Notes: generated by a model from the sequence alone, not told the origin. DNA of 64,000 nucleotides from an uncultured Planctomycetaceae bacterium (GCA_964449435.1 CAYUYR010000001.1:134796-198795); one strand, 5' to 3'; positions 9,102 through 54,500 are shown, counted from the first letter of the stretch. Numbers and translations: made by a program.

Positions 9102-9106
9102 AAACG

Positions 9107-28020: not shown

Positions 28021-28165
28021 GCCTCCCACAGCCGAAGGGGAGAGAAATTAGATAGTTTTTGCGGTTGATTTCAATTCTTGACCGGCGGGGTTTATTCTGT
28101 TATCGTACTGGCCCGTTTATTGATGTGAATTTAGCGTATTAGCGGAAGCTGTTCGGAGCGATTTA

Positions 28166-30355: not shown

Positions 30356-30375
30356 TTTGTGCGGATACTGTGCGG

Positions 30376-33333: not shown

Positions 33334-33544
33334 CTTGTCAGGCCTTAATACTCGATTAGAAGCGTTTTTCTTACGGTTTTCGGTATTTTACAGTTTAGTT
33401 TGTGTCTTTCAAGAACTGTTTTTATGCAAAAAAAAAGGTTTTCAAACAGATATTGATATGGTATTATCGCCGGCATAGTCGGCAACAACTGTTTGCGCTG
33501 GGCAAAAAGAACAGAGTTGGCCATAAATTAGGAAAGGATAAGTT

Positions 33545-35575: not shown

Positions 35576-35777
35576 TACCAATAACAAAGAAGATGACGGC
35601 TTTGTTTGAGGTCTTGTTGGTTGTGCGAGGCAAGTCGGCAAGCGCACAACTGCGGAGGGGTGGTGTTGCGCGTTTTTATGCGTCTGATATAAATAATAAG
35701 TACCTTGGACGCAGAATCAGTAAAACGCTTCACGCTTCACAAACGATGAAGTTTCCCCAGTTTAGCCATTTTTTCTT

Positions 35778-35806
35778 TTGACAATGTACAATCATTCATG
35801 TATACT
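35778..35806 (+). promoter_or_regulatory. Sigma-70-like promoter
   Basis: TTGACA - 17 nt - TATACT, about 125 nt upstream of the amylase start. Confidence 0.5.
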
Positions 35807-35931
35807 ATCTTGTGTCCTTTACCAGAACACTAAATAGTGCTTTAGGGTTGAAAAATACGGGTTTTTTCAATCGAGAGCTATAATACTGTAATTTTGGTGT
35901 GATAATATCGACAATGAATGAAAGGGAAAAA

Positions 35932-38040
35932 ATGGGAAAGCCCGGTTTGACCTTTGTAATTGTTCTAATAGTTTCTACTGCTATAGGCAGCAGCTTATTT
36001 GCAGGTGGCGACCCTCTTGATTCCAACAGTGTAATATTCCAGACCTTTTACTGGGATGTACCGGCGGGAGGGACGTGGTACAATACCATCGCGGACAAAG
36101 CTCCCGGATTAAAATCTGCCGGCTTCACACATTTTTGGTTCCCGCCTCCGGCAAAGGGGGCAAGCGGCGGTTATTCAATGGGCTACGACCTGTTTGATAA
36201 TTATGACCTGGGAAACTATTACCAGAAGAGCACAACTGAAACTCGTTTTGGAAGTCTCTCAGAACTCCAGGCAGCAGCGGCGGCTTGCGGCAATGTTCTT
36301 TTGGACCTCGTAGCAAACCATATGATGGGCGCACCTACGCAGTGTGTAGATGCGGGGGATGGGAAATCATATTGGCAGAATTTTACTTACCCCCATGGCA
36401 CATTCGAGAAGGGCTGTGAACACTTTCATCCTGGCGAACCGGCGAACAGCGACGGCTATGAATACCTTATGGGCGAGGATGTAGCTCATATGACCACCTA
36501 TATGTTTGACGGCCAAAGTACATGGGCCAGCTGGACAAAGTCCACGATTGGAAATGTGTCGGGTTTCCGGCTGGATGCAGTCAAGCATTTTAGTTGGAAT
36601 ATGTCCAAGGAATTCGGCACTATCGGCAGTTGTATTGGAGAATACTGGGACAGCAAAACCAATATTCTGAATTGGATGAGTTATACGGGTAATTACGCTT
36701 TCGATTTTCCGCTTTATTATACGATGAGGGATTCTGGAGCCGGCGCTCTTGATGAAGCCGGTCTTTGCTCGCCGAAGGGTATAAGTTTTGTTAATAACCA
36801 TGACATGGAGAGAGAAACAAACCAAATCACTCAGAAATCCAGGGCTTACGGGTTTATTATGTATATTACCCCGACCCCTTCTGTATTTTGGTCGGACTGG
36901 TTTGACAGTCCATTATATCCTGATATCCGGCGTGCTTTGGAGGCGAGAAACGCTTATGATTTTAGCGGTACCACGACCATTTATAAGGCAACAAATCTCA
37001 TTATTTTTAATAATAACGGGCTGGTTTATGGCTGTTTCAACAGCGCCGGCACTGCGGGCAGCAGAACAATAACAGCAAGTCCAAATACAACGTACCGTGC
37101 AATAGCATGGGGACCTGGCGATCGGCCGGCCGACGTCATATCTGACGGAAGCGGCAGCGTAACGCTCACCGTCCCTGCTGTAGGATATTGTTACTGGTAT
37201 GGTGGCAACATAGGTACAAAGGCCGCCGTTCCGGATCCGGTTAATGGGGAAACTAACGTCAGCACTGCTATAGAATTAAGCTGGCTCGCCGGTGACGGTG
37301 CAGTATCTCACGATGTCTATTTCGGCACCGATGAAGCCGATGTGGCAGATGCCAATAGGTCTTCAGGCGAATTCAAAGGCAACCAGACAGATGCAACCTT
37401 TAATCCCGGTACTTTGGATTACACTATGACCTACTATTGGCGTATCGATGAAATAGACGCAGGGGATACCATTGCCGCAGGCGACGTCTGGAGCTTTACG
37501 GTGCGTCATTCCGATTGTCTGAGCGCGTATGACACTGTGCATGTCCCAGGTGATAGCACAGCAGTGTTCGGAAGCTCTTGGAATCCCGACGGTGCCGATA
37601 ACGAAATGACGCTCGTTGCCGACTATACCTGGCGATGGGAACGCAAAATCTCCAGCGCAACGAGTGTTGAATATAAGTTTGCAATGAATGGTTCCTGGGG
37701 TATAAACAGGGGTTTGGGAAGCACTTCCGGCACCAATTTGCCGCAAGACAACTGGAGCCTCGCACAGGACGGTGCTAATATCAACGCAAATCTTCCTGCG
37801 GCGACTTGTGTTTGGGAGTATTACGAAGACACCGAAACCAGTAAATTATATGTGAACGTTGATTTTAACATTGACGGCAATGTGGACTTCGCCGATTATG
37901 TTATCTTCGCTGGCCGCTGGTTCGATGAGGGTTGTGCCGGACCCGACTGGTGTGATGGCGCCGACCTCGATAAGAGCGGTTCTGTGAACTGGTATGATTT
38001 AGCTGAATTTGTCGAAGTTTGGCTGCTCAATACCAACTAG
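35932..38040 (+). CDS. Modular GH13 alpha-amylase (archaeal-type catalytic core + YYWRIDE module + starch-binding-like module + dockerin-like tail)
   Basis: 'FQTFYWD', 'DLVANHMMG', 'GFRLDAVKHF', 'GEYWD', 'FVNNHD', then 'HDVYFGTD...YYWRIDEI', 'HVPGD...EYKFAMNGSW', 'DGNVDFADYVIFAGRWF'. Start chosen at the ATG preceded by GAAAGGGAAAA. Confidence 0.9.
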   Translation: MGKPGLTFVIVLIVSTAIGSSLFAGGDPLDSNSVIFQTFYWDVPAGGTWYNTIADKAPGLKSAGFTHFWFPPPAKGASGGYSMGYDLFDNYDLGNYYQKSTTETRFGSLSELQAAAAACGNVLLDLVANHMMGAPTQCVDAGDGKSYWQNFTYPHGTFEKGCEHFHPGEPANSDGYEYLMGEDVAHMTTYMFDGQSTWASWTKSTIGNVSGFRLDAVKHFSWNMSKEFGTIGSCIGEYWDSKTNILNWMSYTGNYAFDFPLYYTMRDSGAGALDEAGLCSPKGISFVNNHDMERETNQITQKSRAYGFIMYITPTPSVFWSDWFDSPLYPDIRRALEARNAYDFSGTTTIYKATNLIIFNNNGLVYGCFNSAGTAGSRTITASPNTTYRAIAWGPGDRPADVISDGSGSVTLTVPAVGYCYWYGGNIGTKAAVPDPVNGETNVSTAIELSWLAGDGAVSHDVYFGTDEADVADANRSSGEFKGNQTDATFNPGTLDYTMTYYWRIDEIDAGDTIAAGDVWSFTVRHSDCLSAYDTVHVPGDSTAVFGSSWNPDGADNEMTLVADYTWRWERKISSATSVEYKFAMNGSWGINRGLGSTSGTNLPQDNWSLAQDGANINANLPAATCVWEYYEDTETSKLYVNVDFNIDGNVDFADYVIFAGRWFDEGCAGPDWCDGADLDKSGSVNWYDLAEFVEVWLLNTN
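37519..37887. repeat. Starch-binding-like module, DNA copy 1
   Basis: Near-identical to 38184..38554. Long identical runs include 'acggtgccgataacgaaatgacgctc' and 'aaaatctccagcgcaacgagtgttgaata'. Confidence 0.85.
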
Positions 38041-38107
38041 TAATGACACAAAAAAAGGGAAATTTCTAACGGCGTTGACCTATATAACAGGCGAAAGGGA
38101 AAAGATA

Positions 38108-40219
38108 ATGAGAAAGTTAACTTTAACTTTTACACTTTTAATTGCTGTTATTACAAGCAACAGCTTATTTGCTAACGAGTTTTTAAGCGCATACAAGACC
38201 GTTCACGTCCCGGGTGATGACTTTGACGTGTTCGGAAGCTACTGGGACACCGACGGTGCCGATAACGAAATGACGCTCATTGCCGACTATACCTGGCGAT
38301 GGGTACGCAAAATCTCCAGCGCAACGAGTGTTGAATACAAGTTTGCAATGAATGGTTCCTGGGATACAAATAGGGGTTTGGGAAGCACTTCCGGCACCGA
38401 TTTACCACAAGACAACAGGGACCTCGTACATGACGGTAATAATTTCAACGCAAATCTTCCTGCGGCAACTTGTGTTTGGGAGTATTACGAAAACACCGAA
38501 ACCAGTAAATTGTATGTACTGCCTGCCGACCTTAATACTGACGGCAATGTGGACAGCCGGTCTCCTGCTCCGGTGTTCGAGGACTCAGCCTCCCTGGCCG
38601 CCGCGGCCAAGAAACCGCGGGCGTCTTATTTCCCCTCGCCGGATGACTGGCGACGCCAGGTCATTTATCAGATTATCACCGACCGCTTTGACAACGGCGA
38701 CCCGTCTAATGATAATGCACATCCCCGGGGGCGGGTGGCCCCGGCAAACGGCGAAGCAATCCACGGCGGAGATTTTCGCGGGGTTGAAAAGCGGCTGGCT
38801 TATCTTGAATCTCTGGGAGTGACCGCCATCTGGATTTCGCCTATTTTCCTCAACTCACACGGACAGTATCATGGCTATTGCACGTTTGATTTTGACAGAA
38901 TCGACCCGCACTGGGGGACACTGAAGGATCTGCATTCGCTCATCGATGCTGCGCACGAGCGCGGCATTCGCGTCTTCTTCGACGTCATCTGCAACCACAT
39001 GGCCGATTTGATTGAGCCGAACAGTCCTGAACCGGCGGCATGGAAAGCGCCGCCGCAGACCTACACGCTGCGATGGCGTCAGCCGTCTTTGCGTTATCCG
39101 CCTCCATTCGACAATCTCGATTTGTTTCACGCCCACGGACCAATTGACTGGAATGTCTCACAGTCCGTCATTCTCGGTGAGCTCTATAATCTGGACGACC
39201 TCAATACGGAGCTGCCGCAGGTCCGTGAGTATCTAACGCAGGCGTTTAAAAATCTAATCACAGCGATGAATTGCGACGGCTTTCGAGTGGACACCACAAG
39301 GCACGTCGAGCCGGAATTCTGGCGATACTGGTGCCGGCAAGTCAAGGCCCACGCCGCGTCACTCGGCAAGAAAAATTTCCTGATTTTTGGAGAGTCGTGG
39401 GAATACGACAACACCAAGCTGAATCGCTATCTTGTCGATGAAAACGGCGAACGGATTTACGATTCTCTACTGGATTTTCCCGGCATGAAGGTGATGCTGA
39501 ACGTTTTCGCTAAAAATGCAGCGGGCACAACTGCGTTGAAAAGTGCCTACGAACGGGCCCTGCGGCAACTTGCGCCGCACGCACATGACCGAATGGTGCG
39601 CTTCATCGACAATCACGACGGTAAACGATTCCTGACCGTTGCCGCTGAAAGCCAGCCTGACGTCGAAAAGCGACACGGACGGCTGAAACTGGCGTTGACC
39701 TACATGCTCACCAGCGGCGGCGTGCCGATAATCTACTACGGCACCGAACAGGGATTCGAAGGCGGCTCGAAGGACTGGGACAGCAGCAGAGAGGATATGT
39801 TCGATGGCGAATTCGAGTTAGGCCCTTCCGAAGGCGACAACTTCAATTTGGAGACCGAACTTTTCCGTTTTACACAAAAGTTGCTGCGTACACGAGCCGG
39901 ACATAAAGCACTTCAGCTCGGAGATATGAAATGGCTGGCAACCAGCAGTGATGGGCCTGGTGTTCTGGCTTATCTGCGAAGCGAGGGCCATAATGGAGTC
40001 CTTATTGTCATGAACACAAACGAAGTGAAGAACGCCGAGTTCAGCTCGCCGGAGTTATTCGGCTCGACAGATGGGGCGTCGGACGATGCTGCTTTGCGTC
40101 CTGCCGAAGGATGGCTGACACAGTGGCCCGACCGCAGCAAGCCGCTGATACTCAGCCCTCAGGAAATCGCCGTATTTGAGGTTCAGTTGCGAGAGTCCTC
40201 CAAAGCACCCAACAGTTAA
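38108..40219 (+). CDS. GH13 alpha-amylase-family enzyme with an N-terminal starch-binding-like module
   Basis: Signal peptide 'MRKLTLTFTLLIAVITSNSLFA'. GH13 regions 'DVICNH', 'GFRVDTTRH', 'FGESWE', 'FIDNHD'. Also 'ITDRFDNGDPSND'. Confidence 0.9.
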   Translation: MRKLTLTFTLLIAVITSNSLFANEFLSAYKTVHVPGDDFDVFGSYWDTDGADNEMTLIADYTWRWVRKISSATSVEYKFAMNGSWDTNRGLGSTSGTDLPQDNRDLVHDGNNFNANLPAATCVWEYYENTETSKLYVLPADLNTDGNVDSRSPAPVFEDSASLAAAAKKPRASYFPSPDDWRRQVIYQIITDRFDNGDPSNDNAHPRGRVAPANGEAIHGGDFRGVEKRLAYLESLGVTAIWISPIFLNSHGQYHGYCTFDFDRIDPHWGTLKDLHSLIDAAHERGIRVFFDVICNHMADLIEPNSPEPAAWKAPPQTYTLRWRQPSLRYPPPFDNLDLFHAHGPIDWNVSQSVILGELYNLDDLNTELPQVREYLTQAFKNLITAMNCDGFRVDTTRHVEPEFWRYWCRQVKAHAASLGKKNFLIFGESWEYDNTKLNRYLVDENGERIYDSLLDFPGMKVMLNVFAKNAAGTTALKSAYERALRQLAPHAHDRMVRFIDNHDGKRFLTVAAESQPDVEKRHGRLKLALTYMLTSGGVPIIYYGTEQGFEGGSKDWDSSREDMFDGEFELGPSEGDNFNLETELFRFTQKLLRTRAGHKALQLGDMKWLATSSDGPGVLAYLRSEGHNGVLIVMNTNEVKNAEFSSPELFGSTDGASDDAALRPAEGWLTQWPDRSKPLILSPQEIAVFEVQLRESSKAPNS
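38184..38554. repeat. Starch-binding-like module, DNA copy 2
   Basis: See 37519..37887. Protein 'VHVPGDDFDVFGSYWDTDGADNEMTLIADYTWRW...' versus 'VHVPGDSTAVFGSSWNPDGADNEMTLVADYTWRW...'. Confidence 0.85.
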
Positions 40220-40264
40220 CAAAAACCCCGAAATCTACGGCTATAATTAACGATTAAGGCGTCA

Positions 40265-42229
40265 TTATTGCTTTGATGTCGGTTGCGATTCCGTTTCTTG
40301 TTGTTCTACTTGTTCCTCGGTTTCTTGTTGTTCTTCGGATTGAACAGCCGAATCCAGCTTTGACTTCAGTTCCGTCAGAAGTTTGTATATCATGGAATCT
40401 TTACCTTTTTGGCATGTTTGACAATCACCCCTTCTCTCTTCGAGCTCTTCAATTTGCACAAGTCCTCTTTCAACAAAAGTTTTGCCCGTGGATATATATT
40501 TTTTATCAAAATCTCTTAATTCGTAGCAGTATCGGCCGAGCTGCACATACGCGGATAAAAGCCATTCATCAATGGCGATGGCCTTCTTAAAGTAATCAAT
40601 CGCCTTGGCTTGAGCATTAATATCATTCTCAAGAGAGGCGACTAACTTGCCCATATTTATCTGGATGTCATAGATATCAAAGCCGATTCTGCTGCCGAGC
40701 TCTGCGAAAATAAGCACTGATTCTGCTTTATCCTGCCGTGCCTTTGATGTCTTTGTCTCTGTTTTTTTGCCCTGTTCCGTATATTCATTTAAGAAATATC
40801 GGCCGATTTGGTAATAATAATCGCTGAGCATATAGCGCAAAACATTGGGCTCTTCCTCGATATTGCTCAATGTACTATCCGGTATGTTCCATATACTTAT
40901 TTGGTCTGCTTTTATTTCATTCTGTGATTTGGGCCCCGGCACAACCTCATAGTACAATGGATGGGGCAGCAGCCATTCGTCTCCGCTTGTCTTATATGGC
41001 CAGGTCAAGTAAATCCCGCCGACTTTTTTAGAAGGGCCGGAACCTTCACTGCCCCTGGTTTGCTTAATTATTGTCTCCGACGGTTTATTTTCTCGAATTG
41101 ACAAGCCGATGGTCCTGTCTATGATTTTACGCCGGTTCTCGATAACATAAGACCCCGTTAGATTGCCGAGCATATTATCAAACAAATATCCGTCCGCGTC
41201 ATAAATTTGCACGTCGTTTCGATACCCTTCGAGCTGATGTAAAATTTGGAGGGCGTAAAGTTTTATATCGAACTCGCCGAAACCTGTATATAAAATGCTG
41301 TCGGTCTTTAACCCCGATAACAGCAGCTTCGGGTATTGAAGAAACAGTCCTTTTAATTCGCCGGCATGCTTCATATATCGAGCCATCAGGCAATTTTCTG
41401 TTTTCCAGGACGAGTTGGAATAGAGAACGGAAAGATTGAAAAAGCCCCTTTTCTTCCACATGCCTTCATACGGCTTCAATTTGAGATACTCGAATCGTGC
41501 GTTGAATATATCCCGAAGATTGCCGGTAAAAATATGAGTGGGCTTTAATTCTTCAAAAAAAGTGTCTGCAATTTTATATTGGCTCTCCTGCCATAACGGG
41601 CTTCCCTTTTTTACTAATGAACGCGCTGTCAAATAGTTTTCAATGGCCTTAAAGCACGTCTGATGCCATTTATCGTGTTCTCCCTGCAGGTAATAAATAC
41701 GGTTATTGTGCTTTAAATCATCCCCTGCCTTTATGTAATAGCCGGCTGATTTATCATACGATTTTTGTTTTACGCCCTTTTTGACGGCGTCTTGCAGCTC
41801 ATTGTATTTTTCCCTGTTTTTCGAGACCTGCTCAGCGGTATCCCGGCTTACAATAAAATCTCCCTTTCGCAGGAGATGCTTTTTGCCCTTTATTTTACCG
41901 GAAAAATCGACAGGTACGTCTCTCGGCAATGCTCTCAAAAACTTCAGGTTATGAACCTCTATAATATTCAATTTCTCATCCACGGCGAAACAGCTTTTCG
42001 ACTTTTTCAGCTCAACTAATGAATCGCTAAACGCCGAATTTAGTATGGCCGGTCTGTAATAAGAGGTAAAACTGACGCCGCTGCCGTCGATTCCGTCAAT
42101 GACAGCGAGTGTTTTTCGGCTGTACTCGAGGCGTTCGGTCTGCGACACTATGCCTGCATATACGGAATTAACGCTAAAGATAAATATAGCAAAAATAAAT
42201 GCTTTCCGGAACCGTCTTCTGCGTGTCAT
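40265..42229 (-). CDS. Hypothetical secreted protein (TPR-like C-terminal part, acidic Glu/Gln tail)
   Basis: 654 aa. Signal-like N-terminus 'FIFAIFIFSVNSVYA'. Tail 'EEQQETEEQVEQQETESQ'. Visibly AT-rich. No family recognised. Confidence 0.5.
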   Translation of the reverse strand: MTRRRRFRKAFIFAIFIFSVNSVYAGIVSQTERLEYSRKTLAVIDGIDGSGVSFTSYYRPAILNSAFSDSLVELKKSKSCFAVDEKLNIIEVHNLKFLRALPRDVPVDFSGKIKGKKHLLRKGDFIVSRDTAEQVSKNREKYNELQDAVKKGVKQKSYDKSAGYYIKAGDDLKHNNRIYYLQGEHDKWHQTCFKAIENYLTARSLVKKGSPLWQESQYKIADTFFEELKPTHIFTGNLRDIFNARFEYLKLKPYEGMWKKRGFFNLSVLYSNSSWKTENCLMARYMKHAGELKGLFLQYPKLLLSGLKTDSILYTGFGEFDIKLYALQILHQLEGYRNDVQIYDADGYLFDNMLGNLTGSYVIENRRKIIDRTIGLSIRENKPSETIIKQTRGSEGSGPSKKVGGIYLTWPYKTSGDEWLLPHPLYYEVVPGPKSQNEIKADQISIWNIPDSTLSNIEEEPNVLRYMLSDYYYQIGRYFLNEYTEQGKKTETKTSKARQDKAESVLIFAELGSRIGFDIYDIQINMGKLVASLENDINAQAKAIDYFKKAIAIDEWLLSAYVQLGRYCYELRDFDKKYISTGKTFVERGLVQIEELEERRGDCQTCQKGKDSMIYKLLTELKSKLDSAVQSEEQQETEEQVEQQETESQPTSKQ

Positions 42230-42381
42230 TTGCTTACTCCTTATTACCCTATTCGGCTATTTTAGCGGTTTTGCAATAAGTTGTATATTAAGTAGTTTCA
42301 AGCGAAAGGGCAACGGATTATTTTCTCCGCTGCCCTTTACTTTCAGTTGCTTGAACTGGTCTGCAAAATGTTACTTCAGCG

Positions 42382-43737
42382 CTACGGTCTGCCGCCTCCG
42401 CCGTCTGGTGGTCCGCCGCCGGGTCCGCCGTCATCGCCGCCGCCGCCGTCGCCGCTGCCTTCCGCCCAGTAGGCATATCCCCTGGCAGGTGCGGTCAAAG
42501 TCACATTGCCGTCCGCGTCGGATGTAACATCAGCCGGCTGATCGCCAGGACCCCATGCTACCGCCGTATACGTTGTGCTTGCCTTTAGTGTTACCGTACC
42601 GCCGCCCGCTCTCCGATCGCTGTTGAAACAGCCATAAACCGGCGCATTATTCTTGAAAATAATGAAGCTGGTCGCCTTGTAGATGGTAGATGTGCCGCTA
42701 AAGTCATACTGCTTTCTTGCATCCAGAGCACGCTGGATACTTGGCTGTAAAGTAGAGTTAAACCAGTCCGGCCAGAACACACAAGGGGTCGGCTCAATAT
42801 ACATAATAAACCCGTAAGCCATGTCTTTGGCGCCAATCCCGTCCGAGTCGTGGTTGGCGACGAAACTTACACCCTTGCTTGAGCAAAGGCCGGCTCCATC
42901 AAGAGCGCCGGCTCCGGAATCCTTCATCGTATAATAAAGCGGGAAGTCAAAGGCGTAATTGCCCGTGTGGCTCATCCAGTTCAGGATGTTCTCTTTGCTG
43001 TCCCAGTACTCGCCTACACACATACCGAGGGTGCCGAATGTCTTGGACATATCCCAACTAAAATGCTTGACAGCATCCAGCCGGAAACCCGCCACATTGC
43101 CAATCGTGGACTTCATCCAGCTGGCCCAGTTCTTCTGGCCGTCGTACATATAGCTGGTCATATGAGCTACGTCCTCGCCCATAATGTATTCATAGCCGTC
43201 GCTGTCCGCCGGCTCGCCAGGATGAAAGTGTTCACAGCCCTTCTCGAATGTGCCATGCGGGTAGTAAAAATTCTGCCAATATGATTTTCCATCCCCTGCA
43301 TCTACACACTGCTCGGGTGCGCCCATCATATGGTTTGGCACGAGGTCCGGAAGAACGTTGCCGCAAGCTTGGGCGGCTGCCTGAAGCTCTGAGAGACTTC
43401 CAAAGGCAGTTTCAATTGTGCCTTTCTGGTCGTATTCGCCTAAATCATAGTTATCGAACACGTCATAGCCCATTCCGCTATTGCCGCTGCTGCCCTTGCA
43501 AGGTACCGGGAACCAGAAATGCGTAAAGCCCGCTGTTTTCAATCCTGAAGCCCTGTCCGCGATATAATTGTACCAGTTGCCCTTGCCTGACTCGTTAAAG
43601 CAGTCCCAGTAAAAGGCCTGGAACATTATTATGCTGCTTTCTGCGGCAAACAGGATGCTGTTTGTACCAGCAATCAACAGGAGCAGCATAAGGACCAAAT
43701 TTGTCTTTTTTATCTTTCTCATTTTTTTTCCTTTCAT
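42382..43737 (-). CDS. GH13 alpha-amylase, archaeal-type core, copy A
   Basis: 'FQAFYWD', 'GMGYDVFDNYDLGEYDQKGTIETAFGS', 'DLVPNHMMG', 'GFRLDAVKHF', 'GEYWD', 'FDFPLYY', 'FVANHD'. Gly/Asp-rich tail. Start may be the ATG at 43722. Confidence 0.9.
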   Translation of the reverse strand: MKGKKMRKIKKTNLVLMLLLLIAGTNSILFAAESSIIMFQAFYWDCFNESGKGNWYNYIADRASGLKTAGFTHFWFPVPCKGSSGNSGMGYDVFDNYDLGEYDQKGTIETAFGSLSELQAAAQACGNVLPDLVPNHMMGAPEQCVDAGDGKSYWQNFYYPHGTFEKGCEHFHPGEPADSDGYEYIMGEDVAHMTSYMYDGQKNWASWMKSTIGNVAGFRLDAVKHFSWDMSKTFGTLGMCVGEYWDSKENILNWMSHTGNYAFDFPLYYTMKDSGAGALDGAGLCSSKGVSFVANHDSDGIGAKDMAYGFIMYIEPTPCVFWPDWFNSTLQPSIQRALDARKQYDFSGTSTIYKATSFIIFKNNAPVYGCFNSDRRAGGGTVTLKASTTYTAVAWGPGDQPADVTSDADGNVTLTAPARGYAYWAEGSGDGGGGDDGGPGGGPPDGGGGRP

Positions 43738-44135
43738 ACTTCAATCCCCCATGCTTTGCTCTGCTGAGCTACACACTCGGCGGCAAAACACCTGCTGTTT
43801 TTTCTTTCCCGTATCGGCCCGGGCTCATCAGAACCGGGCTGCTGAAACAACGGAAAAGAATCTGAACACGCCGAACCCTGCTCTTGCACATAATTAACCT
43901 CCTTTCCGGATTGGCGGTGCCTTTCAAGAGATTCATAAACCCTTTTACATAACGATATATCACAACAACAGTCCTTTTCGTGATTCGTATGAGTGCTTCC
44001 TGCGTGGTCTATCAACGTCTGTCTGTGGTTGAAAATGTGCCTCTGCTGCCGCTCTTTGCTATCCGTCATCCATAACCATGCATACTTGACACAAAAAACA
44101 CACTCTAAATCCTGAGAAATACTCTCATTATACGA

Positions 44136-44163
44136 ATTATACCAAACCTGTTTTTCGTGTCAA
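44136..44163 (-). promoter_or_regulatory. Consensus sigma-70 promoter for amylase copy A
   Basis: Minus strand reads TTGACA - 16 nt - TATAAT. About 390-405 nt upstream of the start codon. Confidence 0.55.
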
Positions 44164-44380
44164 GTAAAAAAATCCTTTTTTTCTTCGTGAGCGTTCACGC
44201 GAAAACACGCTTTTTAGGCCAGGAACGCTTTTTTCCCGGTGAACGCTAAATGCTCAATGAGTTTTGGAATGGAGATTTGATTTGTTCGAGGTGTTTGACG
44301 ATGAGAGCTTGCAGTATGGCGTGTTTTGAATATTTGGTTCTGCCGGCGGAATAATTTTTATCTCGCAGTGCTTTTCAATA

Positions 44381-44423
44381 TAAAAAGAATGGAGGGCAGC
44401 CTCTAATTTAAAGGTTGCCCTCC
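44381..44423 (-). terminator. Rho-independent terminator after amylase copy B
   Basis: GGAGGGCA/TGCCCTCC 8-bp stem, followed on the minus strand by ATTCTTTTTA. Confidence 0.65.
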
Positions 44424-44456
44424 ACTTAAAATCGTCTGCAAAATGTTACTTCAGCG

Positions 44457-45788
44457 CTACGGTCTGCCGCCTCCGCCGCCTGGTGTTGTTCCGCCGTCGT
44501 CGCCGCCGCCGCCGTCGCCGCTGCCTTCCGCCCAGTAGGCATATCCCTTGGCAGGTGCGGTCAAAGTCACTTTGCCGTTCGAGTCGGATGTAACATCAGC
44601 CGGCTGATCGCCAGGACCCCATGCTACCGCCGTATACGTTGTGCTTGCCTTTAGTGTTACCGTACCGCCGCCCGCTCTCCGATCGCTGTTGAAACAGCCA
44701 TAAACCGGCGCATTATTCTTGAAAATAATGAAGCTGGTCGCCTTGTAGATGGTAGATGTGCCGCTAAAGTCATACTGCTTTCTTGCATCCAGAGCACGCT
44801 GGATACTTGGCTGTAAAGTAGAGTTAAACCAGTCCGGCCAGAACACACAAGGGGTCGGCTCAATATACATAATAAACCCGTAAGCCATGTCTTTGGCGCC
44901 AATCCCGTCCGAGTCGTGGTTGGCGACGAAACTTACACCCTTGCTTGAGCAAAGGCCGGCTCCATCAAGAGCGCCGGCTCCGGAATCCTTCATCGTATAA
45001 TAAAGCGGGAAGTCAAAGGCGTAATTGCCCGTGTGGCTCATCCAGTTCAGGATGTTCTCTTTGCTGTCCCAGTACTCGCCTACACACATACCGAGGGTGC
45101 CGAATGTCTTGGACATATCCCAACTAAAATGCTTGACAGCATCCAGCCGGAAACCCGCCACATTGCCAATCGTGGACTTCATCCAGCTGGCCCAGTTCTT
45201 CTGGCCGTCGTACATATAGCTGGTCATATGAGCTACGTCCTCGCCCATAATGTATTCATAGCCGTCGCTGTCCGCCGGCTCGCCAGGATGAAAGTGTTCA
45301 CAGCCCTTCTCGAATGTGCCATGCGGGTAGTAAAAATTCTGCCAATATGATTTTCCATCCCCTGCATCTACACACTGCTCGGGTGCGCCCATCATATGGT
45401 TTGGCACGAGGTCCGGAAGAACGTTGCCGCAAGCTTGGGCGGCTGCCTGAAGCTCTGAGAGACTTCCAAAGGCAGTTTCAATTGTGCCTTTCTGGTCGTA
45501 TTCGCCTAAATCATAGTTATCGAACACGTCATAGCCCATTCCGCTATTGCCGCTGCTGCCCTTGCAAGGTACCGGGAACCAGAAATGCGTAAAGCCCGCT
45601 GTTTTCAATCCTGAAGCCCTGTCCGCGATATAATTGTACCAGTTGCCCTTGCCTGACTCGTTAAAGCAGTCCCAGTAAAAGGCCTGGAACATTATTATGC
45701 TGCTTTCTGCGGCAAACAGGATGCTGTTTGTACCAGCAATCAACAGGAGCAGCATAAGGACCAAACTTGTCTTTTTTATCTTTTTCAT
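44457..45788 (-). CDS. GH13 alpha-amylase, archaeal-type core, copy B
   Basis: 443 aa. Identical to copy A except the first ~10 and last ~45 residues. Confidence 0.9.
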   Translation of the reverse strand: MKKIKKTSLVLMLLLLIAGTNSILFAAESSIIMFQAFYWDCFNESGKGNWYNYIADRASGLKTAGFTHFWFPVPCKGSSGNSGMGYDVFDNYDLGEYDQKGTIETAFGSLSELQAAAQACGNVLPDLVPNHMMGAPEQCVDAGDGKSYWQNFYYPHGTFEKGCEHFHPGEPADSDGYEYIMGEDVAHMTSYMYDGQKNWASWMKSTIGNVAGFRLDAVKHFSWDMSKTFGTLGMCVGEYWDSKENILNWMSHTGNYAFDFPLYYTMKDSGAGALDGAGLCSSKGVSFVANHDSDGIGAKDMAYGFIMYIEPTPCVFWPDWFNSTLQPSIQRALDARKQYDFSGTSTIYKATSFIIFKNNAPVYGCFNSDRRAGGGTVTLKASTTYTAVAWGPGDQPADVTSDSNGKVTLTAPAKGYAYWAEGSGDGGGGDDGGTTPGGGGGRP

Positions 45789-46213
45789 TTTTTTCTCCTA
45801 TCAAATTTCTTTAATCCCCGGCGTTTCGCTCCGCTGAGATACACACCCGGCGGCAAAACACCTGTTTTTTTTTCTTTCCCGTATCGGCCCGGGCTCATCA
45901 GAACCGGACCAGATACTAACTGCTAAAGCAACGGCAAAGAAGCTGAACACGCCAAACCCTGCTCTTGCACATAATTAACCTCACTTTCCGGATTGGCTGT
46001 GCCCTTCAAGAAATTCATAAACCCTTTTATACAACAATATGTCACAACAACAGTCCTTTTCGTGATTCATAATGGGTGCCTCCTGCGTGAACAATCAACG
46101 TCCGTCTATGGTTGGAAATGTGCCCCTGCTGCCGCTCTTTGCTATCCGTCATCCATCATACATAACACAAGCACACCCCAAACCCCCAAATCCGATGTAT
46201 TCTCTTTATACAA

Positions 46214-46241
46214 AGCATACTAAACATGTTTTTCGTGTCAA
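46214..46241 (-). promoter_or_regulatory. Sigma-70-like promoter for amylase copy B
   Basis: Minus strand reads TTGACA - 16 nt - TATGCT. Positionally homologous to the copy A promoter. Confidence 0.5.
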
Positions 46242-46422
46242 GTATTTCCACTTTTTTCTTCGTGAGCGTTCACGCGAAAACACGCTTTTTAGGCCCAAAA
46301 CGCCTTTTTTCCCAGTGAACGCTCACCTTTTTTCTTATTTTTGCCGTGGTCCGATATCAATTTTGTCTCTAATGAAAAACCGTTCGCCTTATAAGTACTT
46401 ATTTCAATGGAAGTTATAATTG

Positions 46423-46447
46423 TTCTTCCTTACTTTCTTAATAAGGC
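46423..46447. repeat. Short CCTTAC-type block
   Basis: ttcttCCTTACtttcttaataagg. Confidence 0.4.
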
Positions 46448-46475
46448 TCACCGGCAAGCAATACGAAGAAAAGCC

Positions 46476-46504
46476 TTGACAGTCCAATTTCATAATTGTA
46501 TGGT
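46476..46504 (+). promoter_or_regulatory. Sigma-70-like promoter
   Basis: TTGACA - 17 nt - TATGGT, about 85 nt upstream of the GH31 start. Confidence 0.45.
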
Positions 46505-46588
46505 ACGACAGGCTTATGGTAAGGCCTTTTTGGGCACAAGGTTTAACTAGATAAAATTAGGTTGTGAAATGGACTGAAAGGGAAAATT

Positions 46589-48802
46589 ATGATGGTTTTT
46601 AGCAAACGATTTAGGTTCTGGGTAATTGCACTTGTCTTGTCTATTTTGTCTGTGGGCTGCGCAGAACAACTCGGCCAGTCGCAATTGCTCGGCGACGGAA
46701 TCGTTCGTTTTTACGAGCCGAATGTGGTAATTAAGGATTTGCCTCCTTCAATGTCGCTTGAGCGTGAGCCGAGTGTAATCGGCAAGGTTCCCGCTGAATG
46801 GAAACTTGTCCCAAAATTCGGGTTTGATAAAAGCACCGGCAGACATACCGCCGTTATGAAAATCGACGCCGGCACAAGCCTGTACGGCACCGGTGAAGCG
46901 GCTGGTCCGCTGCTGCGCAACGGGCGCATGAGCGAATGCTGGAATACCGACGCTTATGGTTACGACGATTCAACTCCATCGCTGTACCAGTCGCATCCGT
47001 GGGTTTTGGCAGTAAGGAAAGATGGGACCGCTTTTGGAGTGCTGGCCGATACTACCTGGCGATGTCAGATTGACTTGAGCAAAGACATAAAATTCTCTGC
47101 TGAAGGACCAAGTTTCCCTGTGCTCGTCATCGATGCCAATTCCCCGCAGAATGTGCTGCGGAAACTGGCGACTCTTATCGGCAAAATACCCCTGCCGCCA
47201 AAGTGGGCAATCGGTTATCACCAGTGCCGGTACTCTTACTACCCGGACGAACGTGTGCGCGAGATAGCCAGGGAATTCCGCAGCCGTAAGATTCCCTGTG
47301 ATATCATTTGGCTGGACATCCATTATATGGACGGGTACCGGATTTTCACTTTCGACCCCAATCATTTTCCAGACCCTGCCGGCTTGAACGATGACCTGCA
47401 CAAGATGGCTTTCAAGACAGTCTGGATGATTGACCCCGGCGTCAAAGCCGAGAAGGGCTATTTCGTTTATGACCAGGGTACCGCAGGCGACCACTGGGTA
47501 AAGAGCGCCGAGGGCAAAGAGTATAACGGCGAGGTCTGGCCTGGAATGTGCGCATTTCCCGACTATACCAGGCCGGAAACTCGTGCATGGTGGGCGTCAT
47601 TGTACAAACCCTTTATGGCGCTCGGCGTTGACGGCGTCTGGAATGATATGGACGAGCCGGCTGTCTTTAACGTAAAGTCAAAAACTATGCCTCTCTATAA
47701 TATTCACCGCGGCGGCGGCGGACTGCCTCAGGGGCCGCACGCTCAATATCATAACGTTTACGGTATGCTGATGGTTAAAGCTTCGCGTGAAGGTATCCAG
47801 GCGGCCAACCCGGATAAACGACCATTTGTACTTACAAGAGCGAACTTCATCGGGGGCCACAGATATGCCGCCACATGGACAGGCGATAACGTTGCTAACT
47901 GGGAGCATCTTGGCTGGTCCGTTACGATGTCCCTTAATCTCGGCCTGTCCGGCCAGCCTTTCAGTGGGCCGGATATCGGAGGGTTCAGCGAGGACGGCGA
48001 TGCAAAACTGTTTGCACGCTGGTTCGGCGTGGGAGCGCTGCTGCCATTTTCCCGTGGGCACACCGATGTTAAGAGCAGGGATAAGGAACCGTGGACATTC
48101 GGAAAAGACGTTGAGAACTCCTGCCGGACAGCATTAGAGCGGCGATACCGTTTACTGCCGTATTTGTACACTCTATTTTATGAAGCATCCGTAACCGGCC
48201 TGCCGGTAATGCGACCGGTATTCTTTACTGACCCCGCTAATACGAAGCTGCGAAGTGAGGACAGCGCATTCCTGCTCGGCTCAGACCTGCTGGTCGTTCC
48301 TCAACTGAAAGAAAATTTAAACCAAACTGCTATTCAGCCATCTGGTATATGGCGGACGGTTTCACTAGTTGGCGAAGACAGCGCAAAAGACGTTAATCAA
48401 CCCGAATTAAAAATCCGCGGCGGAGCCATCATCACGCTCGGCCGAGTAGTGCAAAGCACAGAAGAAATCTCGCTCAACCCGCTTACGCTGCTGGTCTGCC
48501 TCGATGAAAATGGACTGGCCCAAGGCGTATTATACGAGGACGCAGGCAACGGCTACGGCTATCGCGATGGCGAGTATCTGCTGACAAAATATGCAGCTCG
48601 GCAGGATGGCGAACGCGTAATCGTTGAGATACTAAGTCAGCAGGGCAAAATGCAGAGACCGAAACGCAATGTAATCGTCGAACTTATAACGGACAAAGGC
48701 GTAATTAAAGCCGAAGGCGATGAAACAAAACAGATTGTAATTGATATGCCGCAAAAAACAGCGTTTTCAGGGCTGAAACCAGCCCCTTTAGCGGGTTGGT
48801 GA
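46589..48802 (+). CDS. GH31 alpha-glucosidase (lipoprotein signal)
   Basis: 'GVWNDMDEP' (nucleophile block), 'TWTGDN', 'HNVYG'. N-terminus 'VLSILSVGC'. Confidence 0.92.
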   Translation: MMVFSKRFRFWVIALVLSILSVGCAEQLGQSQLLGDGIVRFYEPNVVIKDLPPSMSLEREPSVIGKVPAEWKLVPKFGFDKSTGRHTAVMKIDAGTSLYGTGEAAGPLLRNGRMSECWNTDAYGYDDSTPSLYQSHPWVLAVRKDGTAFGVLADTTWRCQIDLSKDIKFSAEGPSFPVLVIDANSPQNVLRKLATLIGKIPLPPKWAIGYHQCRYSYYPDERVREIAREFRSRKIPCDIIWLDIHYMDGYRIFTFDPNHFPDPAGLNDDLHKMAFKTVWMIDPGVKAEKGYFVYDQGTAGDHWVKSAEGKEYNGEVWPGMCAFPDYTRPETRAWWASLYKPFMALGVDGVWNDMDEPAVFNVKSKTMPLYNIHRGGGGLPQGPHAQYHNVYGMLMVKASREGIQAANPDKRPFVLTRANFIGGHRYAATWTGDNVANWEHLGWSVTMSLNLGLSGQPFSGPDIGGFSEDGDAKLFARWFGVGALLPFSRGHTDVKSRDKEPWTFGKDVENSCRTALERRYRLLPYLYTLFYEASVTGLPVMRPVFFTDPANTKLRSEDSAFLLGSDLLVVPQLKENLNQTAIQPSGIWRTVSLVGEDSAKDVNQPELKIRGGAIITLGRVVQSTEEISLNPLTLLVCLDENGLAQGVLYEDAGNGYGYRDGEYLLTKYAARQDGERVIVEILSQQGKMQRPKRNVIVELITDKGVIKAEGDETKQIVIDMPQKTAFSGLKPAPLAGW

Positions 48803-48959
48803 AACAGCCTTGAAAATTTCAGGTTAAACTGCGGATTTCAGCCTTGCAGTAAAGACAGGATTAGTGTATAATTTGCCAAGTACGGCGAATATTGAAAGTT
48901 TTTGAGATGAAATTGTTGTTTTAAACTTATAAATTAACAGGCAGGGATATTTAATAATA

Positions 48960-49844
48960 ATGAACGTAAAGGGCTTTGTTATGAGCAGACAGAAAGACGA
49001 ATTTGGTGCGGCAAAAGTAAAGGTTTCTAACCGCGGAAGAAACAGGTTCGAGAAGGCGTTCACGTTAGTTGAGCTTTTAGTGGTAATCTCGATTATTGCG
49101 ATATTGCTGGCGGTGTTGATGCCGGCGCTGCAAAAAGCCAGGAAACAAGCCAGGGTCGTTATTTGCAAGTCCAACCTCAGGCAATGGGGCATTATGTTTT
49201 CGATGTACTGCGAGGATAACAATAGCCGCTTCTTCAGCGGCCTGTTCGAGGGTGTGACCAGGGATCACGGCGAATACTGGAGATTTCCCATGAAACCGTA
49301 TTCCAAGGATGAAAAGATGTGGATGTGCGCAGAGGCCACAAAGCCGCGGGTCGGCGGGGGAGAGCCTCATGTTGGAGACCCGCCTACTACAGCATGGGAA
49401 TGGGATGGTCAGGTAGGCAGCTATGGTATTAATGGCTGGGTAATGAATCCAACGCCGGGAGCGGACAGCCTCTATGGCCGCGGTCCCGCGTCATACTACT
49501 GGAGAACCTCTCAGCAGAAAGGCTTGAATAATATACCCGTATTTTTGGATACGTGGTTCACTGATGCCTGGCCAAAGGATGTTGACAAGCCTTATACGAC
49601 GTCAGAGAATAGCCCATCCGATTCAGCGACGATTGGCTCGGATGAAATGCAGAGAGTTTGCGTCAACCGACACAGTGGGTACGTAGATGTTGCCTTTATG
49701 GATTGGTCTGTCAGGAAAGTCGGACTTAAGGAGTTGTGGACCTTGAAATGGCATCCGACTTTCGACACGAGAAATCGCTGGACCCACCCCCGCGTCCGGC
49801 TTACAAGTTGGCCGAGATGGATGCAAAAGTTCAAAGATTATTGA
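48960..49844 (+). CDS. Prepilin-type N-terminal cleavage/methylation domain protein (pseudopilin-like)
   Basis: '[24 protein letters not shown]' and '[16 protein letters not shown]' (H-X9-D-like). True start uncertain; several in-frame ATG/GTG codons lie upstream of the hydrophobic segment. Confidence 0.75.
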
Positions 49845-50077
49845 AAAAAGACTATTATGCAGATGACAAAGGCCGGACCCGGTGGTCCGGCCTTTTTTGC
49901 TGCCCGAAAGCAGGAACCTGCCAGCCAGCCGCTCACTTCGTTGTTAGGGACGGCTTTTGGTGAACATTCTTATGAATACCAGTAAATAACGACCCAGAAA
50001 ATAGGTTTTACGGGTCAAAGGTAATGCTGCCTCTTGCGGGAAAATAGAAAAAAATAGTAGGCGAGGCAAAAAAAATC

Positions 50078-51516: not shown

Positions 51517-54500
51517 ATGCGTAAAAAACTTATTTATCTAATTTCTTTTGTTGTGCTGCTGACTCTGGCCGGTAATGTGTCAGCAGACTTAGACACAGAC
51601 CCTAATCTCGTAGCGCACTATAAGCTGGATGGCGATGCCAACGATACCGGTCTCGTCTCCCCGGTAGCCGACGGCGTCTTAAATGGCGACCCTGCATGGA
51701 CAAATGGGCGAGCAGAGGTAGGCGGGTCAATCGACTTCGACGGCAGCAGCGAATGGGTGGAGATACCGGACGCTAACAAGCTCGACATCACCGACGATCT
51801 CACTGTCGCGTTCTGGATGAGGGTTGATCACTTCGGCAGTCGGTGGCAGACGGTTGTTATCAAGGGCGTCTCCTGGGACGACAACGTCTGGAAGTTTGAG
51901 CATGCTTACGACAACGAGGGCGGTATCTTCTTCAGAGTTGGGGGCGAGGGGGAAACGGGCGTCGGCATATCGGGGCTGACGGACGTGAACGATGGCAATT
52001 GGCATCACATTGCCGGAACGTATGAGAAAGCAACAGGAGCTGCGAATATATATATAGACGGTATTTTGGAGGCTGGCGCAAGCGCTGCCGCAGGAACAGC
52101 AATACCGACAAACGATCATCCCCTCTATATCAACCTGGTGAAGGATGGGTGGCATCTCGACGGCGGCATCGACGACCTGCGTGTCTATAAACGTGTCCTC
52201 TCGTCAACTGAGATAGAGGCATTAGGATATAATATTCCCTACTTACAAGCCCATGACCCCGACCCAAGTGTTGGACAAATGGGTGTGCCGGCAAGTGTGG
52301 TCCTTGGCTGGACAGCGGGAGATTATGCAGATACGCACGATGTGTACTTAGGCACCGATAAAACCGCTGTGGCAGAGGCCAACACATCCACGCCGGACAT
52401 ATTCCAAGGCAACCAGGCAGGTACAACATACGACCCACCTGGAGACCTTCCACAAGAGACCATTTACTACTGGCGGATTGATGAGGTCAATGATGCTAAT
52501 AGTGATATTTGGCCCGGCTGGGTCTGGAGCTTTGCAGTCGCCTCCCCGTATCCCACTAACCCGAGCCCTGCTGATGGTTACCAATATGCGCCCCTGGATG
52601 CGAACCTCACCTGGACTGCGGGAGCTACAGCAGTCGAGCACAGGGTGTACTTTGGCACAGCCAGTAACCCGCCGCCCAAGGCGTGGGTGACTATGCCCAC
52701 TACCACCTGGGACCCAGGCCCCCTTACAGCAGGCGTGACTTACTACTGGAAGATATTAGCGAGGGAAGCGGATGGCACGACGACGTACACAGGCCCTATC
52801 TGGAGTTTCAGAGCAACAAACCAGCTGCGCGGCTGGTGGGAGTTTGATGACGGCGATGGTAATACTCCCATCGATTCAAGCGGTAACGGCAATCATGCTG
52901 TCTTTGGTGTTTCCCCGAATAGTCTGCCTACCTGGACGACCGATGGGCGGCTCGGCTCGGCGCTTGAGTTTGACGGCGACGAGGACTGGGTAGAGGTCGA
53001 CCGTGACCCGAACTTAGACATAACCAAATCTATGACGCTTGCGGTCTGGATAAAAATCTATAATTTCGGCGGTGATAACCAGAGCATCATCGGCAAGTTC
53101 GACAACTGGAAGTTTGAGAGAGCAGGTACCGGCGGTACTATCCTCTGGGTCGTCGAGGGCGGAGCGCCCTGGACCACCTATGGAAACATAAGCATTGACG
53201 ACGGTGAATGGCATCACCTCGCAGGAACGTATGACGGAGCAACAGGGTATCAGACTCTATATGTGGATGGTGTTCTGGACGTGCAGACGAGCGGTACGAC
53301 GCCCCACACGATACCGACCAGTACGAACCCGCTTTATATCGGCTCGAATGGTCTCGCTTGCGTCGTTGACGACCTCCGACTTTACGACTATTGTCTGTCG
53401 GGGAGCGAGATATCGGACTTGGCAAATATTCCCTGGCCGCCAGAAGCCCGTACCCCCAAGCCGGCCAATAAGTCAACTGTGGCAATGAAACCGGATAAGA
53501 TGCTTACTCTTAGCTGGGTAGCAGGACCTGCTGCTGCCTCGCACGATGTATATTTCGGCACCGCTTTTAGCGATGTCAACGATGCCGGCACCCTCGACAC
53601 CGAGTTCAAAGGCAATCAGGCAGGTACGACCTATGGTGTCGGGCCACTTGAAACAGTGAATACCTACTACTGGCGGATTGATGAAGTCAATGATGCCAAT
53701 AGTGATATCTGGAAAGGCCACGTCTGGCGCTTTACAACAGCAGAATATTTCTCCGTGGATAATTTTGAGGACTACAGCGGCACCGAACCCGATAGAATTT
53801 TTGACCCTAACGGGTGGGTAGCCGGCGGCGGCGGGCTTGTGGATTTCAGCGACTCCAATATAGTCATGGTTCACGGAGGTCTACAGGCGATGGCGCTTGA
53901 ATACGATAACCTTGCATCGCCGTATGATTCAAATGCCACCCACACATTTGGTTCGTCGCAGGATTGGACTGTCGATGGCATCAAGTCATTGGAGCTGTGG
54001 GTTAGAGGTTGGCCGGCATACGTCGGCGGCTGGGCAGAGGCCTCAGGTACCCACACAATTACCGCCTCCGGCACAGACATTGAGGATGTGCCGAACGTGA
54101 AATCAGGAACAGGCTACCACGATGAGTTCCATTACGCCTATAAGGAAATAACCGGCAGCGGGCTTGTGACGATTATAGCGAAAGTAGAAAGTATCAGTCC
54201 CACCGACCCGTGTGTCCCCATCCACGAATGGGCCAAGGCCGGCGTGATGGTTCGCAAGTCGCTGGATCCGAACTCTAAGAACGCTCTTATGTGTATCACG
54301 CCTGAAATGGGCGGAGCTTTCCAGTATCGTGAAGTGGATGCCGGTGGCACCACCAGCTATAACTACTACGCAAGCGGCGAGGATTACGTTGCCTTGAAGG
54401 ACATTAACGCTCCATACTGGGTAAAGCTGGAGCTGGACTCCGATTACGGTGACATTTATGCTTATCATTCGTCTGACGGCAGCACCTGGACCGAGGTACA

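Follow-up and report, generated by a model that had tools for sequence, protein, structure and literature searches.

Probable Gene Conversion Between Tandem Alpha-Amylase Genes in an Uncultured Planctomycetaceae Bacterium

The Alpha-Glucan Utilisation Locus and Its Amylases

A stretch of 64,000 nt of DNA from an uncultured Planctomycetaceae bacterium, referred to throughout as the window and numbered from its first letter, carries two complete genes for secreted GH13 alpha-amylases, amyA and amyB, whose coding sequences share a sharply bounded tract of identical sequence and which are the subject of this account (Table 1). The two genes lie head to tail on the (-) strand within an alpha-glucan utilisation locus, in which a sodium/solute symporter, the third paralogue amyC, a second GH13 gene, an unknown protein of 654 amino acids (aa), amyA, amyB, a GH31 alpha-glucosidase, a prepilin-type protein and a CBM48/PEP-CTERM protein follow one another. 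With a predicted promoter and a predicted terminator each, amyA and amyB appear to be separate transcription units. The ATG common to both copies in the A/B alignment (43722 and 45788), which is preceded by an AGGA(G) motif, is likely the true start of amyA, giving a protein of 446 aa. An earlier note on this DNA had remarked that the signal-peptide starts differ, and the two proteins do begin with MRKIKKTN (A) and MKKIKKTS (B), copy A having an additional upstream in-frame ATG. An open reading frame (ORF) of 111 aa upstream of amyA (43734-44069) was rejected as a gene; it has no Pfam match, and in copy B indels interrupt the reading frame.

Among solved structures the best match of the amylase is that from Pyrococcus woesei (1MWO, E = 6e-37, residues 34-330), and 35 PDB alpha-amylase sequences match at E <= 0.01. 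The conserved regions I-IV (DLVPNH, GFRLDAVKH, GEYWD and FVANHD) align with their 1MWO counterparts, including the positions of Asp, Glu and Asp, the catalytic residues of GH13 enzymes, and so does the N-terminal motif MFQAFYWD. Alpha-amylases of the archaeal/Flavobacteriaceae type, such as that of P. woesei, belong to CAZy subfamily GH13_7. The sequence stays below the Pfam PF00128 cutoff (19.2 versus 22 bits) and the NCBIfam NF006970 equivalog threshold (263.5 versus 516 bits); because these curated family thresholds are not reached, amyA and amyB are predicted to be divergent GH13 members and not equivalogs of a characterised enzyme. The N-terminus holds a Sec-type, signal-peptide-like segment, and the C-terminus is a Gly-rich stretch (ending in GGGGRP), which corresponds to a linker in the closest homologues (P0002, P0003 and P0006, 72-76% identical); the X25-like binding module that it attaches there is absent from amyA and amyB. 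Those homologues whose source is named come from metagenome-assembled genomes (MAGs) of Planctomycetota and Sedimentisphaerales. The 654-aa protein, encoded next to amyA (40265-42229, (-) strand), has no Pfam or NCBIfam match and is 77.7% identical to its counterpart in the related genome described below, against 92-98% for the neighbours; a gene resembling that of the 654-aa protein follows the short amylase in another locus, L072. The 654-aa protein is possibly a partner of the amylase cassette that evolves rapidly.

Table 1. Features of the amylase locus and related elements (window positions unless a locus is named; (.), no strand assigned).
Feature	Position	Strand	Description and evidence
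recA	11775-12821	(+)	Pfam RecA, E = 6e-132; about 30 kb from the amylases
amyC	35932-38040	(+)	Inverted third paralogue, 702 aa, C-terminal X25-like and dockerin-like modules; blastn
Putative older exchanged tract	36283-36618	(+)	About 336 bp in amyC; partners A 43033-43368, B 45099-45434
Hairpin downstream of amyA	42300-42342	(-)	-26.2 kcal/mol, z = -5.3; native flank conserved with relative L067
Duplication unit A	42350-44247	(-)	32 nt of 3' sequence, amyA, leader, promoter, truncated palindromic element; local alignment, blastn against unit B
amyA	42382-43737	(-)	Secreted GH13 alpha-amylase, ORF of 451 aa; ORF list, homology
Putative conversion tract, copy A	42517-43699	(-)	1183 bp, 394 whole codons; matches 44583-45765
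Leader core upstream of amyA	43715-43948	(-)	Most degenerate copy; nhmmer, E = 1e-60
Predicted amyA promoter	44136-44163	(-)	TTGACA, 16-nt spacer, TG-extended TATAAT; 12/12 consensus positions
Palindromic element, copy in unit A	44186-44247	(.)	At upstream end of unit A; cut in last 3 nt of right repeat
Spacer	44248-44424	(-)	Unique, 177 bp; holds predicted intrinsic terminator of amyB
Predicted amyB terminator	44388-44426	(-)	Hairpin and U-run; -27.4 kcal/mol, z = -5.5
Duplication unit B	44425-46323	(-)	32 nt of 3' sequence, amyB, leader, promoter, palindromic element; local alignment, blastn
amyB	44457-45788	(-)	Second copy, 443 aa
Putative conversion tract, copy B	44583-45765	(-)	
Leader core upstream of amyB	45781-46030	(-)	nhmmer, E = 6e-69
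Predicted amyB promoter	46214-46241	(-)	TTGACA, 16-nt spacer, TATGCT; 10/12 consensus positions
Palindromic insertion element	46261-46326	(.)	66 nt, perfect 12-bp terminal inverted repeats (GTGAGCGTTCAC … GTGAACGCTCAC)
Other leader copies	L067 18015-18255; L001 9379-9607; L070 380-608; L075 4747-4978 and 1315-1689; L066 462-839; L076 2054-2373		

The Tandem Repeat and Its Identical Core

A gapped local alignment of copy A with copy B, together with blastn, gave 1922 columns with 73 substitutions and 47 gap columns (93.8% identity) and delimited two units of about 1.9 kb, each made up of a sigma-70-type promoter, a leader of about 400 nt, the coding sequence and 32 nt of 3' sequence. The right ends of the units agree with those proposed in the earlier note, and its left ends (42359 and 44434) had been placed 9 nt too far right, so that the spacer between the units measures 177 bp and not 186 bp; that it carries the terminator of copy B is borne out by the strong hairpin predicted downstream of amyB.

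Identity along the repeat is not uniform. On sliding comparison the difference between A and B is 0% in the core and 7-12% on either side of it, with abrupt edges at both ends; all differences are confined to the two ends of the repeat, and outside the core the copies differ by 7-14%. The identical core, previously put at about 1.17 kb, proves slightly longer, and alignment of the assembled sequence has 0 mismatches and 0 indels over its 1183 bp. Both of its ends fall within the coding sequence, 23 nt past the shared start codon and 135 nt short of the stop, so the tract is wholly coding; its former label of a catalytic core is not apt, as it does not correspond specifically to that part of the enzyme. 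The divergence described for the two ends is found as well: the 3' coding end with the 32 nt downstream has 11 mismatches at 158 aligned sites (7.0%) and one indel of 9 nt, which falls in the Gly-rich tail, and the 5' coding end with some 500 bp of upstream sequence has 62 mismatches at 534 sites (11.6%) and 11 indel events. This latter region is not plain upstream DNA: besides the promoter, it contains a leader that is conserved and an insertion element of small size.

Were the 73 substitutions placed at random among the 1875 aligned sites, an empty block of 1183 would arise with P ~ 1e-30. It might be held that the coding core owes its identity to nothing more than purifying selection or codon-usage constraint, with drift in the non-coding parts and the tail, as the identical tract is all coding and the diverged parts are mostly non-coding or belong to the Gly-rich tail. 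The synonymous sites argue otherwise. None of the 166 fourfold-degenerate sites in the 394 identical codons differs, where 10-19 differences are expected at the flank rates of 6.3-11.7% (P = 2e-5 to 1e-9 for zero differences), and the same codons vary freely in other comparisons: against amyC the proportion of synonymous differences (pS) is 0.47 over part of the tract (265 of the 394 codons), and against the amylase of the related genome 60% of the fourfold sites differ. In addition, the edges of the tract do not match the ends of the coding sequence. The last 45 codons, which lie outside the tract, have 2 synonymous and 7 non-synonymous changes between A and B, and this 3' coding end appears to evolve near-neutrally. 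Because synonymous sites are identical too, and because the same codons vary with respect to amyC, selection is not the cause of the core identity; by this test of synonymous sites the explanation by selection alone is refuted, and we give it practically no credence.

The Palindromic Element, the Duplication Junction and the Spacer

The upstream end of each unit holds a copy of a small palindromic element. The complete copy, in unit B, is flanked by a 10-bp direct repeat, CTTTTTTCTT (46251-46260 and 46327-46336), and the related genome has a single CTTTTTTCTT and no element, that is, an empty site (18487-18496 of L067). A hairpin is predicted for the element (z = -3.8), which has no coding capacity, and its 12-mer occurs 3 times in place of 0.29 expected. 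In its perfect 12-bp terminal inverted repeats, its target duplication of 10 bp, its lack of coding capacity and its empty site it resembles miniature inverted-repeat transposable elements (MITEs), and, like MITEs that serve as rearrangement junctions, it has a duplication junction at its end. No family of dispersed copies was found in the 64-kb window and the 76 loci that were compared, where it is represented only by the two copies in units A and B, which the duplication itself would have made. We know of no cognate transposase.

The homology between A and B stops exactly where the element is cut in unit A (44247), and the unique spacer starts there. The end of the element is thus one of the two breakpoints of the duplication, and, because unit A carries the same element with the A/B homology ending in it, the insertion preceded the duplication. 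The palindrome, or the machinery for its transposition, is therefore a suggested though unproven trigger of the rearrangement. The idea that the 12-mers are a regulon-wide operator of the LacI type was dropped, since the empty site of the relative marks them as insertion ends; they were found at the two amy units only, and no LacI-family regulator is encoded in the window. As for the spacer, no similarity to the flanks of the window, to the relative or to the 76 loci was detected, and comparisons with the sequence that follows amyA, with the corresponding downstream region of the relative and with the DNA upstream of the GH31 gene all gave z ~ 0, so that an origin as a diverged copy of any of the three was rejected.

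The Related Genome and the Age of the Duplication

Through the amyC orthologue P0004, a syntenic locus of a related genome was reached, represented by three assemblies (L067, L068 and L069). Between the same neighbours, whose proteins are 92-98% identical to those of the window, it has a single short amylase and not two. The flanking DNA is 93.9% (28155-40260) and 92.7% (46327-49941) identical, the pooled fourfold-site divergence is 0.104, and intergenic sequence differs by 3-8%; the 7-14% by which A and B differ outside the core is of similar magnitude. Over the promoter plus leader (about 460 nt), identity is 86.4% between A and B, 86.2% between A and the relative and 86.5% between B and the relative, with 29, 24 and 27 unique substitutions in A, B and the relative, respectively. 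Because the three leaders are mutually equidistant, the duplication is evidently old, approximately as old as the split from the relative, and the identity of the core would be secondary and recent. Old copies combined with a core at 0% difference are the phylogenetic signature of gene conversion.

The amylases of the window (42345-43722 and 44425-45788) and of the relative (16758-18020 of L067) are non-orthologous coding sequences at one and the same site. Their proteins are 58% identical, 60% of the fourfold sites differ, and the family tree places them in separate clades. Between B and the relative, nucleotide identity is 93% in the leader core and 65% in the coding sequences behind it; because the leader core is so similar and yet the coding sequences are not orthologous, one lineage has evidently swapped the coding sequence behind a retained leader, with a 5' breakpoint approximately at the start codon. 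The relative is more likely the recipient, since the tract shared with amyC (see below) implies an A-type gene in the common ancestor.

Such a replacement lends some colour to a different history of the repeat, in which the whole unit was duplicated recently and DNA from a diverged relative then replaced what lies between the two cores, the crossovers having occurred at their edges. The leader of A, the spacer and the 3' end of B are contiguous (43700-44582), so one import could explain both diverged ends, and allele replacement with respect to the relative is clear at this very site, with coding sequences of 58% aa identity inside flanks of 93% nt identity. A donor diverged by 7-12% in the flanks should, however, also differ inside the cores at the crossovers, where the edges are sharp and imported differences number zero. 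Crossovers would be needed exactly at both tract edges, and the donor would have had to match this genome in both the tandem array and the palindromic element. Furthermore, it is the leader core of B, not that of A, that is near the relative (5 versus 15 unique changes), and the 5' part of the leader is diverged in both copies, such that neither leader is wholesale foreign. On this evidence import is very improbable, more so than the assembly artefact discussed below.

Gene Conversion as the Proposed Mechanism

Gene conversion of the RecA type between old tandem paralogues is therefore the explanation that we consider probable, with good confidence. About 1.18 kb of one coding sequence would have been copied onto the other by non-reciprocal homologous recombination, within one chromosome or between sister chromosomes, and all differences in the tract would thereby have been erased. 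The homologous-recombination machinery is predicted to be encoded in the same genome, as judged from recA. The mosaic, the synonymous sites and the single-copy relative all support the reading of the core as converted, which the earlier note had put forward from the sequence pattern, with a collapsed or chimeric assembly as its alternative. The mechanism and its direction are what we infer from this pattern, and the same applies to a core difference of exactly zero in the real genome. Because of the prior divergence of about 10%, the tract is probably not much shorter than the 1183 bp that form its upper limit.

Several points weigh against this interpretation or against the age assigned to the duplication. 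A de Bruijn assembler that reuses one repeat edge, or a polisher, outputs identity in spite of a few real differences. The conserved core of the leader holds 15 A-unique and 5 B-unique changes; relaxed constraint on duplicated leaders may inflate the star-like distances, and the duplication may postdate the separation from the relative. That the palindromic element is present in both units and absent from the relative likewise argues for duplication after the split. No closer strain was found in the protein, genome and metagenome collections searched, in which the best non-self protein is 73-74% identical, and for this reason orthologous copies can neither date nor polarise the conversion. Irrespective of whether the core difference is exactly zero, the core is at least ~6-fold younger than the flanks.

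The first of these points leads to the possibility of an assembly or polishing artefact, in which both copies are real and their cores were homogenised by a shared consensus edge or by polishing with mis-mapped reads; in its extreme form, the tandem arrangement itself would be a mis-join of two strain haplotypes. The nearest relatives are all metagenome-assembled, the 1183-bp exact repeat exceeds typical short-read inserts, and exact identity would be the expected product of bubble-popping. Collapse cannot, on the other hand, yield flanks that are 7-12% diverged, indels, or a unique 177-bp spacer with a terminator. Both novel junctions (44247/44248 and 44424/44425) are embedded in unique sequence and clear of the identical tract, no Ns interrupt the window, and the assembled path would be the only one that uses all unique segments. 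With a mis-join of haplotypes, the 3' end of B should run into the conserved left flank and the upstream end of A into the GH31 flank, and neither does. As bubble-popping hides only low divergence, the contrast between a far more similar core and its flanks would persist. It follows that assembly may have smoothed a few single-nucleotide differences in the core, but the mosaic is not something that it can create; a chimeric assembly is unlikely, and to the artefact as a whole we assign a small chance, well below that of conversion.

The Third Paralogue and an Older Exchange

The inverted paralogue amyC, 6 kb from amyA and amyB, is 78% identical in nucleotide sequence to the A/B core over 36032-37197. 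A maximum chi-square scan with two breakpoints, applied to third codon positions with 300 permutations, detected a second tract that amyC shares with the pair. Third-position differences amount to 14% inside and 44% outside of it, a contrast reached by 0 of the 300 permutations, and identity rises in this way for the A-C pair alone, not against the short amylase of the relative. Within this segment the closest sequence to amyA is amyC (0.88); the identity of amyC to its own clade (P0007) falls to 0.71 from 0.81-0.83 elsewhere, and that to the A-type clade (P0002) is 0.79 compared with 0.60-0.68 elsewhere. The tract is also carried by the amyC of the relative. The most economical reading is that the older exchange ran from an A-type gene to amyC and took place in the common ancestor; the direction from amyC to amyA/amyB, which had been the first reading, was dropped, as the segment-wise identities to the outgroups favour the reverse. 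Given this second, older tract, exchange among the amylase paralogues of the locus is recurrent, which amounts to concerted evolution.

A further similarity within the locus concerns the X25-like modules at the C-terminus of amyC (37522-37887) and at the N-terminus of the 736-aa GH13 protein encoded by the next gene (38186-38554), which are 85.9% identical at the nucleotide level over 369 bp and form a candidate for module duplication or exchange.

A Conserved Leader Upstream of the Amylases

Over the ~230 nt that immediately precede the start codon, amyA, amyB and the short amylase of the relative are conserved, and the same leader was found at four more distant amylase genes (in L001, L066, L070/L025 and L076), as a fragment of 79 nt where contig L072 begins, and before both genes of L075, one of which encodes a metallophosphatase with carbohydrate-binding modules in place of an amylase. 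It thus precedes alpha-glucan-utilisation genes in several Planctomycetota-like lineages, covering three amylase clades and the unrelated metallophosphatase. Leader identity is 81-93%, compared with 65-82% nt identity of the coding sequences, in which 22-60% of fourfold sites differ. For nine leader sequences RNAalifold predicts five helices with 43 pairs, 95% of cells being paired; the covariation score is reached by 1 of 500 shuffles, and two-sided changes occur in only 3 pairs, no more than in the shuffles, so that an RNA structure is plausible and unproven. In the amyA leader 8 of the 43 predicted pairs are broken, in that of amyB 4, and in the others 1-2. A search of 42200-46650 against Rfam 15 gave no match at E <= 1, and at gathering thresholds Rfam found nothing in the window except two tRNAs.

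The leaders of L066, L075 and L076 are interrupted at one fixed position by variable insertions of 100-190 nt, which are hairpins or MITE-like. In most copies, one segment of the leader (45934-45990 of the window, (-) strand; about 2120-2180 of L076) has a Shine-Dalgarno-like GGAGGTG followed by a short ORF, MCKRLVSLASLLLL and a stop codon, which is similar to the genuine N-terminal sequence (MCKKLV…) of the amylases P0020 and P0015. A conserved leader peptide is not supported, as a 5-nt insertion shifts the frame in the window and in L067 and the start is ACG in L066 and in one of the L075 copies (L075a); the short ORF may have remained from a duplicated gene start or may be an upstream ORF that acts as an attenuator. 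Two further resemblances were set aside as due to chance, namely a hammerhead-like CUGAUGAG…GAAA string, for which Rfam gives nothing and the closing pair of stem II fails on inspection by hand, and a tRNA-like GUAGCUCAGC string, in which ARAGORN and Rfam find nothing.

With somewhat less than even confidence, it may be proposed that the leader is an undescribed cis-regulatory element of about 230 nt (about 400 nt in its long form), with predicted helices around a segment that resembles a Shine-Dalgarno sequence and start codon, and that it serves at the same time as a portable homology arm and as a basis for regulatory subfunctionalisation of A and B. The genes behind the leader are swapped and the leader itself is conserved, so it may act as such an arm in the exchange of coding sequences. 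In copy A the promoter matches the consensus perfectly and the leader is decaying, and copy B has retained its leader, which hints that two identical proteins are differently regulated. If this is true, it would be a case of regulatory subfunctionalisation of two proteins kept identical by conversion.

Other Features of the Window

At 3481-4743 on the (+) strand, one gene joins a ParA/MinD-type ATPase (AAA_31, CbiA) with a glycogen-binding module (CBM48/AMPK1_CBM/X25-like) at its C-terminus, an unusual architecture that suggests a role in the positioning of glycogen granules. An EcoRV-family restriction endonuclease (Pfam E = 5e-103) adjoins a D12-class adenine methyltransferase (8307-10186, (+) strand), the pair being inserted between gltX-like and pfkB-like genes. 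The gene of a 1194-aa LamG-domain protein contains an internal repeat (52303-52536 versus 53509-53736) of 69% nt identity.

Known Systems and Implications

The closest parallel, known from Salmonella and many other bacteria, is the pair of elongation factor Tu genes tufA and tufB, likewise two protein-coding paralogues on one chromosome with near-identical coding sequences in different surroundings, and with non-reciprocal homologous recombination as the mechanism, which for the amylases is drawn from the sequence pattern. The tuf genes share 1169 of 1182 bp, a length similar to that of the amylase tract; RecA-dependent conversion with or without crossing over has been described, including that of tufA/tufB (PMC8022953), and concerted evolution in prokaryotes can be long-lasting and recurrent (PMC6053082). 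Unlike the amylases, the tuf copies are dispersed in different operons, essential and highly expressed, whereas the amylase copies are adjacent direct repeats that encode an accessory secreted enzyme, and their upstream leader and promoter are duplicated too. Furthermore, conversion of the tuf genes recurs over long periods, and the amylase A/B pair is known from one genome.

Intragenomic conversion also homogenises the repeats of rRNA operons, in which it outpaces mutation more than 100-fold (PMC8022953), and of the repeated gene families of Mycobacterium tuberculosis; long-read studies indicate that conversion between paralogues is common in bacteria and under-reported (PMC12046097). These cases are documented by reads or experimental lineages, in contrast to the single assembled sequence considered here. 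With regard to the enzyme, a bacterial relative of the archaeal alpha-amylases has been described (PMC3922116), and amyA and amyB share motifs with GH13 alpha-amylases of the P. woesei and Flavobacteriaceae type without attaining the family thresholds.

The amylase pair is accordingly a new instance of a well-known process, concerted evolution, and changes no concept. It offers a clean and quantifiable example from an uncultivated Planctomycetota-like bacterium, with sharp edges, an external calibration of age and a second, older tract, and, with a secreted carbohydrate-active enzyme from a phylum that has been little studied, it extends a list in which tuf, rRNA and antigen genes predominate. 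In polysaccharide-utilisation loci, the identity of paralogues cannot be read as the age of a duplication, and such loci are prone to mis-assembly or under-counting in MAGs. Among the by-products are the palindrome at the junction, the replacement of a coding sequence between genomes that are about 94% identical and, above all, the unannotated leader, a candidate for a new regulatory RNA for the use of starch or glycogen.

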